Positions 1,800 through 9,189 of a stretch of 64,000 nt of DNA are shown piece by piece; position 1 is the first letter of the stretch, and every line of letters starts with the position of its first letter. The DNA comes from a virus. Lineage: Duplodnaviria; Heunggongvirae; Uroviricota; Caudoviricetes. The DNA lies in the IMG/VR virus record IMGVR_UViG_3300014205_006828, positions 64,001 to 128,000 of that record. One strand, given 5' to 3'. A program made the translations under genes and the position numbers. Under the pieces are notes generated by a model. That model ran no database searches, had not been told where the DNA came from, and worked only from the letters and a program-made list of their open reading frames with translations.

Positions 1800-2436
1800 C
1801 TAGTCTTCCTAATACACCATCATCGAACCCAATGTTCTTTAATTCATCAAACATCCTAATATATATCGCAACCTCACTGCCATTAGGATCATTTTCAATA
1901 GCTAGCTTAGCAAACGCCAAATCGCCATATGTACAAACATCTATGTTTAGACTACTCACAACAGACTTGTAATCGGCTGGTAATTGAGTTGACCTACTAA
2001 TCCTAGAATCCTTGCTAAACATCTTCTTGAACTGGAAGATAAACTCGGTAGTAAAGAAGTACCCAATAGATGTTACAGATACCTTCTTGGGAATTATATA
2101 CTGATCGAATACGAAATCTATATAATCCTTGATGGTTTGCTTATCCTCAACACCCAGGAACGCAATCATTCGCTTTATACAGAACATCTCAGAACATTTG
2201 GCGGGCGCTCTTGAGTATGATAATGTAAACTCAATACCCATGTGATCTTTATATCTCTTGAGTATGTGTCCCAGAAAGTGATACTCCTGCCATTGTGAAA
2301 TATCATCAGATGCATACAAAGCCAGCTTGGCTTTGAACTTCTGCCAAAAAGCATTTGGAGTGCCATCAGCCTTCAACCCACTAATCTTCTGGACCTTAGT
2401 TACCTTGGGCTCTACTGCTTTTTTTCTTGGGGCCAT
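1789..2436 (-). CDS. Hypothetical protein (215 aa), possible replication initiator or loader partner
   Basis: Sits between the SF2 helicase and the DnaC/DnaB pair and is predicted helical by eye; function inferred from context only. Confidence 0.55.
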   Translation of the reverse strand: MAPRKKAVEPKVTKVQKISGLKADGTPNAFWQKFKAKLALYASDDISQWQEYHFLGHILKRYKDHMGIEFTLSYSRAPAKCSEMFCIKRMIAFLGVEDKQTIKDYIDFVFDQYIIPKKVSVTSIGYFFTTEFIFQFKKMFSKDSRISRSTQLPADYKSVVSSLNIDVCTYGDLAFAKLAIENDPNGSEVAIYIRMFDELKNIGFDDGVLGRLDGN

Positions 2437-3893
2437 GTTACATCAAACTCCGACTCGTATATCTCTCGCCTAATTTCAGAATGTTTATTCAGATATGGGG
2501 CCTGATCTGCAAAGTCAATAATCGCAGACATCTTCTTTCCCTTGTAAGGACGGATGACTCGACCTATCCGTTGCAAAGCTCTAACAGACGATTTACCAGC
2601 GCCAGCAATAACCAGCCCGGAAAGTATCGGTAGGTCAACCCCAATATCGAAAATCTTACTCGCCACCAAGCATTTGATCTTGCCACTTTCCAGCTCATCC
2701 TTAATCTTCTCGCGTTGTGTTGCACTGTCCTTTCCACTCAGAAGTCCAGTTGGTACCGTCTTCTTCATGTGATCGAACAGAACATCGCCATGCTTGATGG
2801 TGTGGAACAGTACGAGCGGCACAAAGCCTTGCTCGACCATACTTTTTGTGGCCTTCACAACCATCGAGTTGCGCTGTTCGTTCTCGACAATATATCTGGA
2901 GTAAATGCTTGGGTACTTTCCGCTCTTGAACTGATACGGCATGGGGGCAATGAACCTGATACTTGGCGGAACCAAATACCCCTGCTTAATTAGCTCTCTA
3001 GCAGAAACATCAACGATCTTTCGTCCAAGGAAAGCTTCGATGAGCATATCCGCTCCATCATCACGCCATGGACTAGCAGACATTCCGTATACATATTCAG
3101 CTTTGATATTTCGAGCAATAACTTGTACAGTATCGCAAGCTGCCAAATGACATTCGTCGAGTATTATCGTACCAGAATTCAACAACATGCCCTTGATCTT
3201 AGAAAATTTCTCTGGATCTGTTTTCTTTTCTACCAAACCATCATCATCCAGTGTCACTGTACCAGTCAGGCCTAACGCCTGGCCGACACTCCAAATAGTA
3301 GCTATATTAATGTCTCTAATTTCGCATTTGCCATCTCCAATAATGCCAATTTCTTGTCTAAATACTTCTTTGAAAAAAGATTGTGTTTGATATAACAAAT
3401 CCTTACCGATTACTAAAATTGTCGAAGATTTACCAATCTTAGCAGTAATTAAAGCCGACACTAAAGTTTTTCCAGATCCCGTGGCAAGCCGAATGATGCC
3501 ACGGTCTGTTTCCACAGCAGCGTTGGCGGCGCTCTCTTGATAGGGTCGAGCTTCCTTACCGATAGCCCGTAAGTTATTGGTAATATCAAGTGGCGTTGAC
3601 CTTTCAATTTGCGGACGTTCATCTATTATCATTGGGCGGCACCCCTTTGAAGCATAGAAATCCATCACACGCGGCAGCAAACCAACTGGGAACTTTCCGC
3701 TCGCTGATAATAGATGGCGCTTACCGTCCCAGGTTACAAATTCACCTAGATCGTTGGTGTAGCCTTTGTAAGCTTGGGAAAATTCGGCACCAAGAAGCTT
3801 AAAGGACAGCTCATTGTCCAATGCTCCTAAAATTTCCTCATCATCTTCTTCAGCGATCCTGCAGGAGTTCTGGTACCGAATAATTGCTGTCAT
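2412..3893 (-). CDS. Superfamily 2 DExH helicase (UvsW/ResIII-like)
   Basis: Q motif RPYQ, motif I ATGSGKT, motif II ILDECH, motif III SAS, motif V GVDLP, motif VI QRIGRVIR. Confidence 0.92.
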   Translation of the reverse strand: MTAIIRYQNSCRIAEEDDEEILGALDNELSFKLLGAEFSQAYKGYTNDLGEFVTWDGKRHLLSASGKFPVGLLPRVMDFYASKGCRPMIIDERPQIERSTPLDITNNLRAIGKEARPYQESAANAAVETDRGIIRLATGSGKTLVSALITAKIGKSSTILVIGKDLLYQTQSFFKEVFRQEIGIIGDGKCEIRDINIATIWSVGQALGLTGTVTLDDDGLVEKKTDPEKFSKIKGMLLNSGTIILDECHLAACDTVQVIARNIKAEYVYGMSASPWRDDGADMLIEAFLGRKIVDVSARELIKQGYLVPPSIRFIAPMPYQFKSGKYPSIYSRYIVENEQRNSMVVKATKSMVEQGFVPLVLFHTIKHGDVLFDHMKKTVPTGLLSGKDSATQREKIKDELESGKIKCLVASKIFDIGVDLPILSGLVIAGAGKSSVRALQRIGRVIRPYKGKKMSAIIDFADQAPYLNKHSEIRREIYESEFDVTWPQEKKQ

Positions 3894-4447
3894 TGAATCC
3901 TAAATACTTCAATGCCGCTTCCGCCCCAACAGAAAATACCATAGCCACCCATTTTGTTTCCATCTGTAATAAATGGCAAACACCCAAATAACTCTGGATC
4001 TGGAAAAATAACGGCAATATCCTCATCAATACCATCTATTGGGAAAACCAATTTAGACCCAGCAACCCTTAACCTTTCACAAACCGCAGGCTTTTCAGAA
4101 CTTACAATTTTTTTCAACACCTCATCAAACGATACACATCTAAGGTTATTTTCAATATGATCATTGATAACAAACTTTAAAAATCTAGCAATGGTTTTTT
4201 CAGGATCATATTTCAACGGATTTAGCAAATCAACAGTAATTGTTTTGAAAAACCCCTTCTTAACAGTCCCTCTTTTACTAACAGTCCCTCTTTTACTAAC
4301 AAAATAACTAGTATCAGTCTTATCTGCTTCGTATTTGGGGTATAAGTGATGCTCTAATGAACCCAATGGATCGATCACAAACATCCGCTGATAATATCCA
4401 GCTTCAGGCCGTAGGAAATAATTGGAGGCTACGTATTTATCTGTCAT
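3890..4447 (-). CDS. Hypothetical protein (185 aa)
   Basis: Co-oriented ORF with a 4-nt stop/start overlap with the helicase; contains an SKRGTV duplication. Confidence 0.6.
   Translation of the reverse strand: MTDKYVASNYFLRPEAGYYQRMFVIDPLGSLEHHLYPKYEADKTDTSYFVSKRGTVSKRGTVKKGFFKTITVDLLNPLKYDPEKTIARFLKFVINDHIENNLRCVSFDEVLKKIVSSEKPAVCERLRVAGSKLVFPIDGIDEDIAVIFPDPELFGCLPFITDGNKMGGYGIFCWGGSGIEVFRIQ
4261..4301. repeat. 18-bp in-frame tandem duplication (taacagtccctcttttac x2.3)
   Basis: Read directly from the sequence; encodes SKRGTV twice. Confidence 0.9.
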
Positions 4448-4511
4448 TCATCCACCCATCTTTTGGACAACTCCATGACCTCAATGGTTCCGTCTTCGTC
4501 AATGGAAAGCT

Positions 4512-7304
4512 TCACTTCTTTCTCCTGTCTTGTACGGCCGCATTGTGAAGCTTGGTGAAGGATGAGGCTTTCTGCTGAATCTTCTTCTTGATTTCCTCAA
4601 CCTGATTGACGGTCTCTTCGCCAACGTCAACCTTCATTGTGAGATTGCGCGCCTCGTCCTTGCGCTGCGCCACTCCAATCTTCAACTGTGCTTCGGTCTT
4701 CAGTTGATCAATTCTTTCCTCTGGTAACCCAAGCCCAGAGAACATCGAATAGACCTTGATACAATCGTCATCAGATTCTTCCTTGTAAATACCATGGAAG
4801 ATGACAGCTCCATCACAGGCATCAAGAATCATAGACTGTGCGAAGTGGAGACTGGAGCTTGGAATCTTGTTCCAGATTTTCTCCGGAGCTACGAGCATGA
4901 AACCGGCATATCGAGCCTGCCGAATGTTGAACCCAGAAGCAAGCAGATTGCCCTTGAGAGAGTCTACGATAGCGGTGGCGATTGCCATCTCATCTTCGTA
5001 GTCTGGGACGCTGGTGACGCCGTATACAGTGAATCCACGGCCGTCCATGAACAGCTTGCCGAACTCGCTGGAGTCCAGAACCTTGACGCCTTCATCTGGC
5101 CGGCGGCTGAGCGTATTGAAGACGTTCAGAGGCTCTACGATGGCCTTATTTGATACGTTGAAGAAATTGAATGGCCCAACCTCACTGTACAACGATTCGA
5201 TCTTCGCGTTATCAACGGTAATGATATTGTGAATCTTGCCATCAGCGAAAAGCTTCGTGAACTTACTCAAGGTTTGCCATGCGTTGTGCTTGAGCTGAGC
5301 ATCTTCGCTGGCCTTTGGAAGAACCGTGAGCACCGCAACTGGCTTCCCAATTTGTGCCAGGATATCAACTACAACAGGAACAGATCCTGCGCCAGATCCG
5401 CCTCCAAGTGACGTGCAGAAGATGAACATCTCTGCGTCACTGAGATGACGCTGAATCAGTTGGTTGATGGCGGCACGATAGGCGTCTGCAGCATCATGGC
5501 CGATAGACAGATCTTTGGCAGCACCACCCAAACCAAAGTCCAAGAGCAGTTTTTGCTGTTCAGGGATCTTGATATTCTCCAAGTCCTGAGGGGCTGTATT
5601 CATACAAACCGAAGGATATCCAAGTGCGAAAAATTGCTCAGCAAGACGGCTATTATGAGTAAAAATAAATCCAAAATTACCAGCTAAATAATTTTCATGT
5701 TCTTCAACGGTTAAGTCATAAAAAATATCATCAGATTCAATATCTTCAAACACCTCCTTGACCACATCCAACTTTGGACAAATTGATTTGATATATTCAG
5801 CTTGTTCTGAGGGTTCTAAAACATCAAGCATTTTCTCAAATGCTGGAATAGATAACTTCCTTTCACCACGACTCCAGCCCTTTAAACACACACCAGAACG
5901 TTCTGATAAATTATTAACAGTTGTCATCCCTCCTTCATCTTTTAACCAATAAGACAACTCTTCAAACGATAAAGGTACAGAAGAAGAGATAAAGCTTTTT
6001 TGATTTGCACTTAACCAATAATTAAGTTTATCTTTCTTGTCTGAATGTGCAAGACACTCAACTATTTTATCTAACAGTGGTCCATGATTTATTTTACCAC
6101 TAATCCTAACTCTATAACAAGTTTTCTCGTTATCCCTTCCGTTTCTAGGAAGTACCACTTCAACATGAGCCCTACCACCAATAGAGGCAATTAAGCAGCA
6201 TAACTTATCTGCTAATAACCCAGAGACAGTAGAGATACTCGACTCACACCAATCTTTGCAAATTGTTCCATCAGAATCTAATAAACCGGCAATAAACGAG
6301 GCTCTGATATTAGAGCTAGCCGAAGATATACAAGAAGGAATATCTATTGTAAAAGTTTTAGATCCAAACCCGCCATATGTCTTTCCATTAAATATATTAA
6401 AAGCAGATTCAAAGAAATACCTAATTTTAAACCCAAAAGCAGATAATTTTTTACAACCCGGCTGATCGCTAATAGAAATCGAACTGGCAAATAAACCATT
6501 TAAAATCCCAGATGCTTTTTCTAATGTACCAGAATCGCTAAGATAAAATGCTATCTCATTTCCACTCTTTGTTGTGGATCCATCCCCGGCAAATAAACCC
6601 AAAACCCAAGCAATATCCTCAGTAATAGTTATACCCCCAACAGAAGTTTCTGAAGATAATTGATCAATAACACTAGATCTAATACCAACAAAACGATCAC
6701 TGCTTGAAATTGATTTAAAAGATTTAAAATGAGCACGCTTCCTTACGCTTGGACTGAATACTAAACTAGGATGAACCTTTGAACAAATTAATTCAGTGCC
6801 AGATTCTGTTATAATCTTATTTTTAGATTGTTTTTTCAACTTCCAAACAGCCATTACTTTGCGTTTACAAAGTTCTCCTGTTTCTGGATTTATTGATACT
6901 GTAAAGATATTTTTATCAGAAGGTAATTTAACACATATTTCCCCTGATTTTGCATCAATATCTTGTACAGTAGAAGATTTTAATTGTTTATTAAAAAACT
7001 CTTCTATAGAAATGATACCATCATTGGAAATAAATACATTTGTTTTACCATCAATACAACCGGCCTGTCCTGAACCGATAATACCAAAGCGAAGGCTTCT
7101 CTGTTGCTCCTCTATAATGCGCAGCGGCATAGGCTCCTCCTGTTCTGTTTTCACCGCATTCTGAGCAGCCTCTTCCTCAGCTCTTTTTTGAGCGGCTCGG
7201 GCCTTTAGTGCAGCTAACTTTTCCAAATCCACTTGTGGTGTTTCCTCTATGTCGTTCACGATTTCCTCTTGATTTAAAATTTCAACTTTTGATTGAGTTA
7301 CCAT
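4512..7304 (-). CDS. Tubulin/FtsZ-family GTPase (PhuZ/TubZ/CetZ-like) precursor containing an intein; spliced product ~461 aa
   Basis: After intein removal the N-terminal loop reads GIIGSGQAG|SRLAEQF; VCMNT..QDL, tubulin signature SLGGGSGAG, TVLP..SE, IITVDN; acidic N-terminal extension and charged C-terminal tail. Confidence 0.9.
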   Translation of the reverse strand: MVTQSKVEILNQEEIVNDIEETPQVDLEKLAALKARAAQKRAEEEAAQNAVKTEQEEPMPLRIIEEQQRSLRFGIIGSGQAGCIDGKTNVFISNDGIISIEEFFNKQLKSSTVQDIDAKSGEICVKLPSDKNIFTVSINPETGELCKRKVMAVWKLKKQSKNKIITESGTELICSKVHPSLVFSPSVRKRAHFKSFKSISSSDRFVGIRSSVIDQLSSETSVGGITITEDIAWVLGLFAGDGSTTKSGNEIAFYLSDSGTLEKASGILNGLFASSISISDQPGCKKLSAFGFKIRYFFESAFNIFNGKTYGGFGSKTFTIDIPSCISSASSNIRASFIAGLLDSDGTICKDWCESSISTVSGLLADKLCCLIASIGGRAHVEVVLPRNGRDNEKTCYRVRISGKINHGPLLDKIVECLAHSDKKDKLNYWLSANQKSFISSSVPLSFEELSYWLKDEGGMTTVNNLSERSGVCLKGWSRGERKLSIPAFEKMLDVLEPSEQAEYIKSICPKLDVVKEVFEDIESDDIFYDLTVEEHENYLAGNFGFIFTHNSRLAEQFFALGYPSVCMNTAPQDLENIKIPEQQKLLLDFGLGGAAKDLSIGHDAADAYRAAINQLIQRHLSDAEMFIFCTSLGGGSGAGSVPVVVDILAQIGKPVAVLTVLPKASEDAQLKHNAWQTLSKFTKLFADGKIHNIITVDNAKIESLYSEVGPFNFFNVSNKAIVEPLNVFNTLSRRPDEGVKVLDSSEFGKLFMDGRGFTVYGVTSVPDYEDEMAIATAIVDSLKGNLLASGFNIRQARYAGFMLVAPEKIWNKIPSSSLHFAQSMILDACDGAVIFHGIYKEESDDDCIKVYSMFSGLGLPEERIDQLKTEAQLKIGVAQRKDEARNLTMKVDVGEETVNQVEEIKKKIQQKASSFTKLHNAAVQDRRKK
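5652..7058 (-). mobile_element. Intein with LAGLIDADG homing endonuclease (469 aa)
   Basis: Block A CIDGKTNV, block B CSKVHP, LAGLIDADG helices VLGLFAGDGS and FIAGLLDSDGT, block F FYDLTVEEHENYLAG, block G FTHN followed by extein Ser; visibly more AT-rich than the C-extein. Confidence 0.93.
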
Positions 7305-7318
7305 TATTTACCTAAATA

Positions 7319-8248
7319 TTACATCTTTAGCACATATTTATTATTCAGATACCATTGGCAAGTCTGAGCAATTCCATCTCTGAACTTGAATTGTGGAGAC
7401 CACCCTAGTGCTTTGATTTTATCATTAGCCATAGCATATCTAGAATCAAAATCTCTCTCGACATGTTTTACTAACTCATGCCCTTTACTAAGGGCATTAC
7501 AAACTATTTGAACAACCTCAAGATTGCTAAATTCCTGTTTGGAAGTTATGTTATATATCTCTCCGCCAACCCAATTTTCGATAATAGCAAATATCGCAGA
7601 ACAAGTATCAAAGACATGAGTCCAATCTCTTGTTTGAGATCCAGTCCCATATATCTCAACTGGTTTCTCATCAAATATTCCATCAATAATATGAGGAATG
7701 AGACCCGAAACCGTCTGCCATGGCCCGTAATTATTGCTCAGGCGAATAATGTTGTAATCCAAACCAGAAGCGCCCTTGACGAACGCCTCGCCGCTGGCCT
7801 TGGTTGTTGCAAGAACTCCATGTGGATTGACTGGATCAGCCTCCTTCCGAAGCGGAACCTCCTCGGATCCAAGATCTCCATAAACTCGATCTGTGCTCAC
7901 GTAAATCAGCTTCGACTCCATCTTCAAGCATTCATTGACGACAGCCTTGGTGCCAAAAATGTTGCGGCTGTTCATCGACTGTTCATCTATAGTTTCAGCC
8001 GCACCATGTATTACAATATCTGGGCGTTCCTTCTCAAAGATTACATGTAGAATATGAGCATCCGTAATATCCGCAATATGGAACGAATGATCGGCGTTCA
8101 CATAGATATTATGAATGATATGGGAGTCTCTTACCCTGTCAATACTAGAAATGGTGTAGGGCAGCTTAGAATAGAAAACTTGTCGAATGAAGTTTCCGAA
8201 AATAAACCCTCCTGAACCAGTGACCATTACCTTCTTTCTTTTAGCCAT
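7319..8248 (-). CDS. Extended SDR, RmlB-like NDP-sugar 4,6-dehydratase homologue with degenerate catalytic motifs
   Basis: RmlB-like motifs HGAAE, YVSTDRVYG, RLSNNYGP, GSQTRDWTHVFD, YNI, HDxRY-like DSRYA. The third Gly of GxxGxxG, the active-site Glu and the YxxxK Tyr are substituted. Confidence 0.82.
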   Translation of the reverse strand: MAKRKKVMVTGSGGFIFGNFIRQVFYSKLPYTISSIDRVRDSHIIHNIYVNADHSFHIADITDAHILHVIFEKERPDIVIHGAAETIDEQSMNSRNIFGTKAVVNECLKMESKLIYVSTDRVYGDLGSEEVPLRKEADPVNPHGVLATTKASGEAFVKGASGLDYNIIRLSNNYGPWQTVSGLIPHIIDGIFDEKPVEIYGTGSQTRDWTHVFDTCSAIFAIIENWVGGEIYNITSKQEFSNLEVVQIVCNALSKGHELVKHVERDFDSRYAMANDKIKALGWSPQFKFRDGIAQTCQWYLNNKYVLKM

Positions 8249-9128
8249 GAAATAATCCCTTTTTGTATTGTTCTCTTAAAACATCTATACTTTTCCCAAA
8301 ATGACTCAGACACATATTTCTGACATCCTCATATGTCACAATACTACAACCAAACCCATGTTCTTTACAGTATGCCCGCAGAGCTGAAAATTTCGCTTCC
8401 TTCTTTTTTTTATTCTCATAACCCTTCACTTCCTCTATAACCTCGCCATCAATTTTAGCAACTAAAAAATCTGGTATATAGTTCTTCTGTTCACCATCGA
8501 ATTCATACTGGATTCTTATTTTATGTCTTTTTGTCCACGTTGTAACATTATCATCCGTATCAAGAACAATCATCCTAATATATTCTGTAAAGGAATCGAA
8601 CCTAAACACCTCTCCTGTTTTTTTTGATGTATAATATCCTTTAAGTCCATAATGACTAGGCTTGATATCAATTTGGCCACTTGATATTAGATTAGATCTT
8701 GTTATTGATATCTTTGCTCTGGTAGCTGAGGAATGCACCTTTCCAAAGAATGGATTTTTGGCACCAATAAATTTACTGCAGTATTCACTCCAGTAAATAT
8801 CAAACTCATCAGCTGATAGTTTGGCTTTCATCATATGGTATAGACCACCAAGATCGCTGTGAGTTTCTGACATTTTTTCCTTTGATGTCTTAGAATGGCG
8901 CTTCCCAAAGAAGTGATTCTTTTCTCCAAGACTTACATCGGATAAATGCTTTTTTTGTTCTTCTGATTTATGTCGCCCAAGATTAATGCACTTCTTTGAA
9001 CAATACCTTCTGCCACCAAACTTACATTTCTTACCAGGCAACCATTCTTCAGTTCCACACGATTCACACCTAATCAAAAACTCCCTAGTTCTTTTACCTA
9101 AAGGTCTCTCCGAAATCAACATATACAA
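8241..9128 (-). CDS. Putative free-standing homing endonuclease: Zn finger, NUMOD3 repeats and a TnsA-N-like PD-(D/E)XK domain; start may be the ATG at 9122
   Basis: CESC...C...YCSKKC; NUMOD3-like GEKNHFFGKRHSKTSKEKMS and GAKNPFFGKVHSSATRAKIS; YIPDFLV...IEEVKG. Confidence 0.8.
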   Translation of the reverse strand: MYMLISERPLGKRTREFLIRCESCGTEEWLPGKKCKFGGRRYCSKKCINLGRHKSEEQKKHLSDVSLGEKNHFFGKRHSKTSKEKMSETHSDLGGLYHMMKAKLSADEFDIYWSEYCSKFIGAKNPFFGKVHSSATRAKISITRSNLISSGQIDIKPSHYGLKGYYTSKKTGEVFRFDSFTEYIRMIVLDTDDNVTTWTKRHKIRIQYEFDGEQKNYIPDFLVAKIDGEVIEEVKGYENKKKKEAKFSALRAYCKEHGFGCSIVTYEDVRNMCLSHFGKSIDVLREQYKKGLFHG

Positions 9129-9189
9129 ATATCTAAATATTGATAGAGGCCACCACTACCTGTTACTAGAACTTTCTTCCTCTTAGCCA

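Follow-up and report, generated by a model that had tools for sequence, protein, structure and literature searches.

The 64,000-nucleotide stretch of phage DNA analyzed here (the window; positions 64,001 to 128,000 of IMG/VR virus record IMGVR_UViG_3300014205_006828, Caudoviricetes) contains a gene for a TubZ-like member of the tubulin/FtsZ family that is split, in its first GTP-binding loop (T1), by a full-length intein of 469 residues. Most likely, this insert is a bona fide class-1 intein, probably still mobile, that parasitizes the tubulin gene of a huge phage. Both the host family and the insertion site are new for what is otherwise a canonical intein, and no new mechanism is involved.

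A full-length intein with canonical splicing residues

The precursor, designated P0001, is encoded by one reading frame on the minus strand (Table 1). Cys1 of the intein is Cys83 of the precursor (codon 7056-7058), the terminal Asn is Asn551 (codon 5652-5654), and the +1 residue is Ser552, the junctions reading RFGIIGSGQAG/CIDGKTNV...NFGFIFTHN/SRLAEQFF (slashes mark the ends of the intein). Comparison of the precursor with Pfam identified Tubulin (PF00091; 5e-14, above the cut-off) and TubZ-like_C. The intein matched Intein_splicing (1e-11), Hom_end (2e-7), and LAGLIDADG_3 (3e-7), the latter two above their cut-offs. Blocks A, B, D, F, and G were all recognizable; SKVH occupies intein residues 93-96, and THN occupies residues 467-469. 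In an alignment of 31 inteins (A3), residues G158, D159, and G160 of the first LAGLIDADG motif are invariant or nearly so, D448, Y457, and H468 are invariant, and N469 is nearly invariant. Cys1 and Ser +1 are conserved in all 15 tubulin inteins located at the T1 site, and serine is the native residue at the +1 position in most intein-less alleles. The open reading frame (ORF), the junctions, and the Pfam matches thus confirm to the base the proposal, made in a first-pass annotation, that an intein with two LAGLIDADG helices occupies positions 5652-7058 and splits GSGQAG/SRLAE.

At the base composition of the intein, the chance of 469 codons being free of stops is 5.6e-18, and the remaining five frames of the same stretch contain 14 to 65 stops. 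This probability, together with the existence of a related contig lacking exactly 1407 nt (see below), indicates that the insert is more than a chance open frame. An intron or a frameshifted insertion was ruled out by the single uninterrupted frame and the canonical protein-splicing residues.

The same annotation had described a full-length intein combining a HINT domain with a LAGLIDADG endonuclease, an assignment borne out by Pfam, by sequence similarity to PI-PfuI, and by structural modeling. The similarity to PI-PfuI (1dq3; 1e-19) spans the N- and C-terminal parts of the intein, block B aligning to LTSPWHPFFV of PI-PfuI. A model built on 31 inteins was obtained with a predicted local distance difference test score (pLDDT) of 91 and a predicted template modeling score (pTM) of 0.92. 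The best Foldseek matches of this model were 1dq3 (PI-PfuI), 7qss (the TliVMA intein), 2cw7 (PI-PkoII), and 1vde (PI-SceI), with template modeling scores of 0.72/0.74 for PI-PfuI and 0.77/0.83 for the TliVMA intein. Mini-inteins superposed on both halves of the HINT domain with a root-mean-square deviation of about 2 Å. PI-PfuI, from the ribonucleotide reductase of Pyrococcus furiosus, and the TliVMA intein have the same architecture as the intein of the window, in which a HINT domain is combined with a LAGLIDADG endonuclease containing two motifs and with an additional helical domain; PI-PfuI additionally shares the SxxH form of block B and the C-terminal HN. The two differ from the tubulin intein in sequence (19-22% identity over the structural alignment) and in their hosts, an archaeal ribonucleotide reductase or V-ATPase rather than a phage tubulin/FtsZ-family GTPase with serine at the +1 position. 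After the tubulin copies, the nearest relatives of the intein by sequence are found in ribonucleotide reductases and subtilases.

The host protein is TubZ-like

Removal of the intein leaves a protein of 461 residues with a restored GSGQAG-SRLAE loop. The sequence of an intein-less homolog, P0015, matched RepX/TubZ (4ei7, 1e-13), CetZ2, TubZ of phage c-st, and FtsZ. In the alignments, GSGQAG corresponds to GLGMGG in RepX and to GVGQAG in CetZ2 and is thereby identified as the T1 loop, and the T4 signature SLGGGSGAGS aligned to the RepX and CetZ loops. A third motif, VLDSSEF, contains an invariant D744 and a nearly invariant E747, its putative equivalence to the T7 loop, the acidic residues of which serve GTP hydrolysis in the filament, being based on position and pattern.

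P0015 was modeled with AlphaFold on 59 homologs (pLDDT of 80). In this model, strand S1 spans residues 73-78 and helix H1 begins at residue 79, and the insertion point between Gly82 and Ser83 is therefore in the T1 loop, where it caps the N-terminus of H1. In tubulin and FtsZ, this is the first phosphate-binding loop, beside the longitudinal filament interface. The best structural matches were TubZ-Bt protofilament structures (2xka, TMt 0.75-0.77), followed by TubZ-Bc (4ei7), CetZ, and FtsZ, and TMt values of 0.70-0.81 across TubZ-Bt, TubZ-Bc, CetZ, and FtsZ indicate a two-domain tubulin fold. A partial PHROG match to PhuZ (3e-7 over 79 residues) was weaker than the match to phrog_17961, and TubZ rather than PhuZ provided the best structural matches. 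The RepX and CetZ2 alignments and the model of P0015 therefore support the view that the host is a TubZ-like tubulin/FtsZ protein interrupted in its T1 GTP-binding loop, as had been claimed for a phage tubulin/FtsZ homolog in the first-pass annotation.

The closest solved folds to the spliced host, TubZ/RepX of Bacillus plasmids (2xka, 4ei7) and TubZ of Clostridium phage c-st (3v3t), share with it a GxGxxG T1 loop, a GGGTGxG-type signature, and a TubZ-like C-domain. They differ from it by their distant sequences (about 20-22% identity), and none of the solved relatives contains an intein. Long charged N- and C-terminal extensions are a feature of the phage tubulin family considered here, unlike TubZ/RepX. 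In two intein-less members, P0004 and P0006, the usual start is preceded by an additional N-terminal domain of about 75 residues that is conserved between the two (alignment A1, columns 1-75). Public pipelines label the precursors of 920 to 940 residues 'FtsZ' or 'CetZ', where they are named at all.

An empty allele defines the boundaries of the insertion

P0015 (461 aa), encoded by contig L006, is 97% identical in protein and 91% identical in DNA to the exteins of P0001 and reads GSGQAG-SRLAEQ. Contig L006 is syntenic with the window and aligned to positions 8264-7059 and then directly to positions 5652-4506, exactly 1407 nt being missing at the 7059/5652 break. The search for intein-less alleles advocated in the first-pass annotation was therefore successful, and P0015 and L006 set the boundaries of the element. 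Contigs from two further runs of two further studies (X3 and X4) cover the intein and exteins without any difference; X3 bridges both intein junctions and X4 the N-terminal junction. The whole stretch is also present in X1, from which this DNA may originate, and no RNA run containing it was found. An assembly chimera was ruled out by these independent assemblies and junction-bridging contigs.

Comparison of the window with L006 provided a ratio of nonsynonymous to synonymous substitution rates (dN/dS) of 0.033 for the extein at a dS of 0.47, and the tip branch of the intein-bearing extein (0.008) was not lengthened in comparison to that of its intein-less sister (0.020). The extein is under strong purifying selection.

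Predicted splicing and homing

The chemistry of class-1 inteins is established. This chemistry is likely to operate here because of the conserved residues, the fold of the intein, and the purifying selection acting on the extein. The 930-residue precursor would be translated with a 52-kDa HINT and LAGLIDADG module splitting the T1 loop between Gly82 and Ser83. Splicing would start with an N-S acyl shift at Cys1, followed by transesterification onto the native Ser +1, cyclization of Asn469 helped by His468, and an O-N shift re-forming the peptide bond. The reaction is predicted to yield a 461-residue TubZ-like protein, in which the GSGQAG-SRLAE loop is intact, and to release the endonuclease. 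During mixed infections, the released enzyme would cleave the T1-loop coding sequence of related phages that lack the intein, and repair from the intein-bearing copy would spread the intein. The T1 loop would be a good hiding place for such an element, since changes in this glycine-rich GTP loop would be lethal to the protein. Since the 52-kDa insert is located in this loop, we infer that the precursor is unable to bind GTP or to polymerize and that, as proposed in the first-pass annotation, splicing would have to precede filament formation.

An alternative is that the insert does not splice and either inactivates the tubulin or forms a permanent two-domain fusion with it, the frame being kept for some other reason. 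Nothing specific speaks for this explanation, which we regard as extremely unlikely. Every splicing residue is canonical and is kept across copies down to 42% identity, purifying selection on the extein is strong and the intein-bearing branch shows no acceleration, and an insert of 469 residues in T1 would disrupt the nucleotide pocket of an otherwise well-modeled fold.

Distribution and probable mobility of the T1 intein

The tubulin family comprises more than 1,250 intein-less matches, most of them of 440 to 470 residues, and the contigs encoding them reach 455 kb. A homologous intein occupies the identical site, G[SLT]GQAG/C...THN/S[RH], in at least 15 protein clusters (90% identity), the exteins of which are down to 44% identical to the query P0001. 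These T1 inteins are 42-73% identical and all keep the splicing and endonuclease residues, the endonuclease core (54% conserved) being comparable to the HINT parts (52-60%). No mini-intein derivative was detected among the matches in the searched length range. The novelty of the insertion site proposed in the first-pass annotation stands with respect to the literature searched (see Discussion), but the intein is not unique to one phage: at least 15 clusters carry it at this site, and inteins also occur at a second site, in the T4 loop (see below).

Close copies were also sought in phage genomes. Megablast of the tubulin gene against 50,697 phage records gave no match, and tblastn of the C-extein against the phage records retrieved only Bacillus phage G (26% identity). 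Scanning IMG/VR with the intein alignment identified 67 loci, all at 37% identity or less, and no close copy, although the scanned set may not have included the window's own record.

On an extein tree of 140 rows, the distribution of the intein requires 9 gains or losses, at least 7 of which are forced on well-supported branches. The 90% clusters of P0001 and P0290 each mix intein-bearing and empty alleles. The extein and intein trees were compared by the approximately unbiased (AU) test: the extein tree supports P0007 and P0008 as a pair, but the intein data reject them as sisters (p = 7e-5); conversely, the intein tree favors a pair formed by P0001 and P0012, which the extein data reject (p = 2e-4). 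The conflict between the two trees points to horizontal homing. Taken together, these comparisons are what would be expected if a homing element passed between related phages, with repeated gains and losses.

Several observations weigh against continued homing of the intein present in the window. No near-identical donor intein was found, the closest sampled one being only 57-58% identical. There was no co-conversion tract beside the insertion site, the differences between the window and L006 being evenly spread around the junction. No intein-skipping joint was present in the contigs of four runs, including those that contain the phage; since contigs drop rare variants, this result does not bear on whether empty alleles are absent. 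With respect to the trees, the clades submitted to the AU test were named after the trees had been seen. The intein clade formed by P0001 and P0002 was borderline, and the test of these two inteins as non-sisters was not relied on (p = 0.037 with 9 rows and 0.10 with 11 rows).

The absence of a co-conversion tract at the junction between the window and L006, the 57-58% identity of the closest sampled donor or recipient intein, and the absence of an intein-less joint in contigs of the same samples would all be accounted for if the intein still spliced with an endonuclease that is no longer active, the element being a vertically inherited passenger that decays late in the homing cycle. This possibility deserves some weight but appears unlikely. 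Both LAGLIDADG aspartates and the block D lysine are retained in every copy, conservation of the endonuclease core equals that of the splicing domain, no mini-intein derivative occurred among the matches in the searched length range, and the tree conflict and the mixed clusters indicate repeated transfer or loss. We therefore favor an intein that has probably retained its mobility.

Composition and arrival of the intein

The GC content of the intein (33.0%) is lower than that of the N-extein (46.3%), the C-extein (49.6%), and the window (40.8%), and the contrast is greater at third codon positions (GC3 of 20.5% for the intein versus 53.5% for the exteins). Only 1.8% of 1407-nt segments are as GC-poor as the intein. 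The counts put forward in the first-pass annotation (19/60 at 5701-5760 and 35/60 at 5041-5100) were exact, and the contrast from which a recent arrival had been deduced is real. Recency does not follow from it since a diverged copy is equally GC-poor: the intein of the phage encoding P0002, 54% identical to the query, displays a GC3 of 17% versus 52% in a genome of the same GC content. Other intein carriers are low-GC phages (26-35% GC), and the intein pool as a whole therefore looks AT-rich. Low GC content is thus weak evidence for a recent arrival. Phylogeny is more informative in this respect: P0001 is nested among intein-less alleles on the extein tree, and parsimony therefore favors a gain of the intein on the branch leading to the query phage. 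Even so, this branch spans a dS of 0.47 to the intein-less sister, and the closest donor sampled is only 57-58% identical.

A second insertion site in the T4 loop

An exhaustive intein search identified a T1 intein in a much more distant tubulin, P0137 (GCGQGG/C...VHN/SRLAE; 32% intein identity), encoded by a 60-kb contig that also carries genes for RecA and Pol III alpha. This phage-like contig harbors a TnpB/IS605 OrfB-type gene (L081:3619-4878) about 1 kb upstream of P0137. A second site was found in three other tubulin-family clusters, P0145 (L082:3-2390), P0158, and P0231, whose inteins split the T4 signature (GGGG/C...HN/TG[SAG]G), as exemplified by the junction AIGGGGG/C...VVHN/TGSGSS.

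Insertion at a position where the precursor should be inactive, persistence of the intein in many lineages of one family, and the existence of a second site in the other GTP loop raise the possibility that the intein was co-opted to act as a post-translational switch, responding to redox state at Cys1, temperature, or infection stage and thereby timing filament assembly; functional roles have been proposed for inteins in the literature (PMC4760082). We consider this co-option very unlikely. The intein is rare (15 clusters versus more than 1,250 intein-less matches), the closest relatives of the query do without it, clustering in conserved nucleotide-binding motifs is expected of a selfish element, and no unusual residues suggest conditional splicing. 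In a broader form, the proposal would be that the T1 and T4 GTP loops are recurrent intein targets and that in some lineages the intein is kept as a conditional switch until an infection trigger, a phage filament protein being then held inactive until splicing is triggered. That scenario is a long shot, and a selfish, probably mobile intein remains our preferred explanation.

Gene organization and genomic context

The features of the precursor gene are listed in Table 1.

Table 1. Features of the intein-containing tubulin gene in the window.
Feature	Position	Strand	Basis
Precursor gene P0001, TubZ-like tubulin/FtsZ family with intein, 930 aa	4512..7304	-	Open frame, Pfam
N-extein, 82 aa: charged N-terminal extension, strand S1, first half of the T1 loop, ending with GSGQAG	7059..7304	-	
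Intein, 469 aa, Cys1 to Asn469: HINT splicing domain, LAGLIDADG endonuclease, helical domain	5652..7058	-	Pfam, model, empty allele
Splicing block A, CIDGKTNVFIS, with the Cys1 nucleophile	7026..7058	-	Cys1 in 15/15 tubulin T1 inteins
Splicing block B, GTELICSKVHPSLVF, with conserved His	6756..6800	-	His96 invariant in A3
First LAGLIDADG motif, LGLFAGDGS, putative catalytic Asp in GDG	6576..6602	-	AGDG invariant in nine inteins
Endonuclease block D, KTFTIDIPS, conserved Lys and Pro	6333..6359	-	K234 and P241 nearly invariant in A3
Second LAGLIDADG motif, IAGLLDSDGT, putative catalytic Asp	6264..6293	-	D261 and G264 invariant in A3
Splicing blocks F and G, FYDLTVEEHENYLAG then FGFIFTHN, His-Asn end	5652..5723	-	Conservation in A3
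C-extein, 379 aa and stop; +1 Ser codon 5649-5651, then helix H1 (SRLAEQFF)	4512..5651	-	
T4 signature SLGGGSGAGS in the C-extein	5382-5411	-	
T7-like VLDSSEF in the C-extein	5061-5081	-	
3' part of the C-extein: TubZ-like C-domain and basic tail, last residues DRRKK		-	Pfam for the C-domain

The window is part of a 131-kb IMG/VR virus record rated 31% complete. An identical tubulin precursor is also encoded by a contig of 463,377 bp in public collections, and the genome is that of a huge phage of roughly 460 kb. The tubulin gene is located between genes for a NAD-dependent epimerase (7319-8248) and a UvsW-like helicase (2412-3893), and the epimerase-tubulin-helicase order is the same in every relative contig compared.

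Other variable segments occur in the vicinity. An ORF of 295 codons (8241-9128, minus strand) encodes two NUMOD3 motifs and a TnsA-like endonuclease N-domain; the corresponding insertion (8265-9178) is absent from the otherwise collinear L006, and the same place is occupied in L008 and L009. This ORF is apparently a free-standing gene for a homing endonuclease and is separated from the intein by a distance of two genes. In the gap between the tubulin and helicase genes, the stretch 3889-4505, which contains an ORF of 185 codons without any Pfam match (3890-4447), is replaced by an unrelated ORF of 75 codons in L006; this gap is a small variable cassette.

Two additional inteins are encoded by the same genome. 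An IMP dehydrogenase/GMP reductase-family gene located outside the window (G000:C1, about 42.4-44.6 kb; L005:1015-3174, minus strand) contains a LAGLIDADG intein in the catalytic-loop region (GVGPG/CFGAGT...IVHN/SLCTTR). The gene for the large subunit of ribonucleotide reductase, likewise outside the window (G000:C1, about 59.2-62.1 kb; L002:1-2925, minus strand) contains an intein with an endonuclease of the HNH type rather than LAGLIDADG. The 131-kb record thus comprises three inteins, in the tubulin, ribonucleotide reductase, and IMP dehydrogenase-like genes. In the phage encoding P0002, the UvsW-like helicase (L008:9890-12649, plus strand; 919 aa) has its own intein with LAGLIDADG matches, and the orthologous helicase of the window (493 aa) has none. 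The huge-phage clade to which the window belongs is intein-rich.

Discussion

No intein described in tubulin, FtsZ, TubZ, PhuZ, or CetZ was found in a literature search whose scope was the published articles themselves, as distinct from intein registries (InBase) and supplementary host tables. Within that scope, the statement of the first-pass annotation that no described intein was known in the tubulin superfamily is supported. Co-occurrence of intein with PhuZ, TubZ, FtsZ, tubulin-like, or CetZ in full texts was limited to purification tags or unrelated mentions. The survey text of Novikova et al. (PMC4760082) names no tubulin or FtsZ host, and no intein host of the tubulin/FtsZ type is present among the mycobacteriophages analyzed by Kelley et al. 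in 2016 (PMC5050341). The huge-phage paper (PMC7162821) mentions PhuZ homologs and does not mention inteins. According to Gallot-Lavallee et al. (2023; PMC10710043), the cytoskeleton category was without reported intein hosts before the dynein and kinesin cases.

Two known systems are close to the one described here. The terminase (TerL) inteins of mycobacteriophages (PMC5050341) are likewise phage-borne, located within or beside the phosphate-binding loop (P-loop) of an oligomerizing NTPase, and sporadic, with discordant intein and extein trees; their authors argue that complexes cannot form before splicing. They differ from the tubulin intein by the fold of the host, which is an ASCE ATPase rather than a tubulin/FtsZ GTPase, and by the fact that they include class 3 and mini forms, some of which were shown to splice. 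The dynein and kinesin inteins of Anaeramoeba (PMC10710043) likewise interrupt cytoskeleton-related NTPases, but these hosts are eukaryotic motor proteins rather than filament subunits, and no tubulin/FtsZ host was reported in that study.

With the tubulin inteins, the known intein hosts now include a cytoskeletal GTPase of the filament-forming type, and the two sites, which are independent of each other, are its two phosphate-binding loops. They fit the rule that inteins reside in the least mutable nucleotide-binding motifs and extend this rule from replication and packaging ATPases to the tubulin fold. The intein of the window also provides a new predicted LAGLIDADG enzyme, for which a target of about 30-40 bp is defined. 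Finally, it offers a natural system in which a tubulin homolog is made as a predicted inactive precursor, which could help to study or control polymerization.

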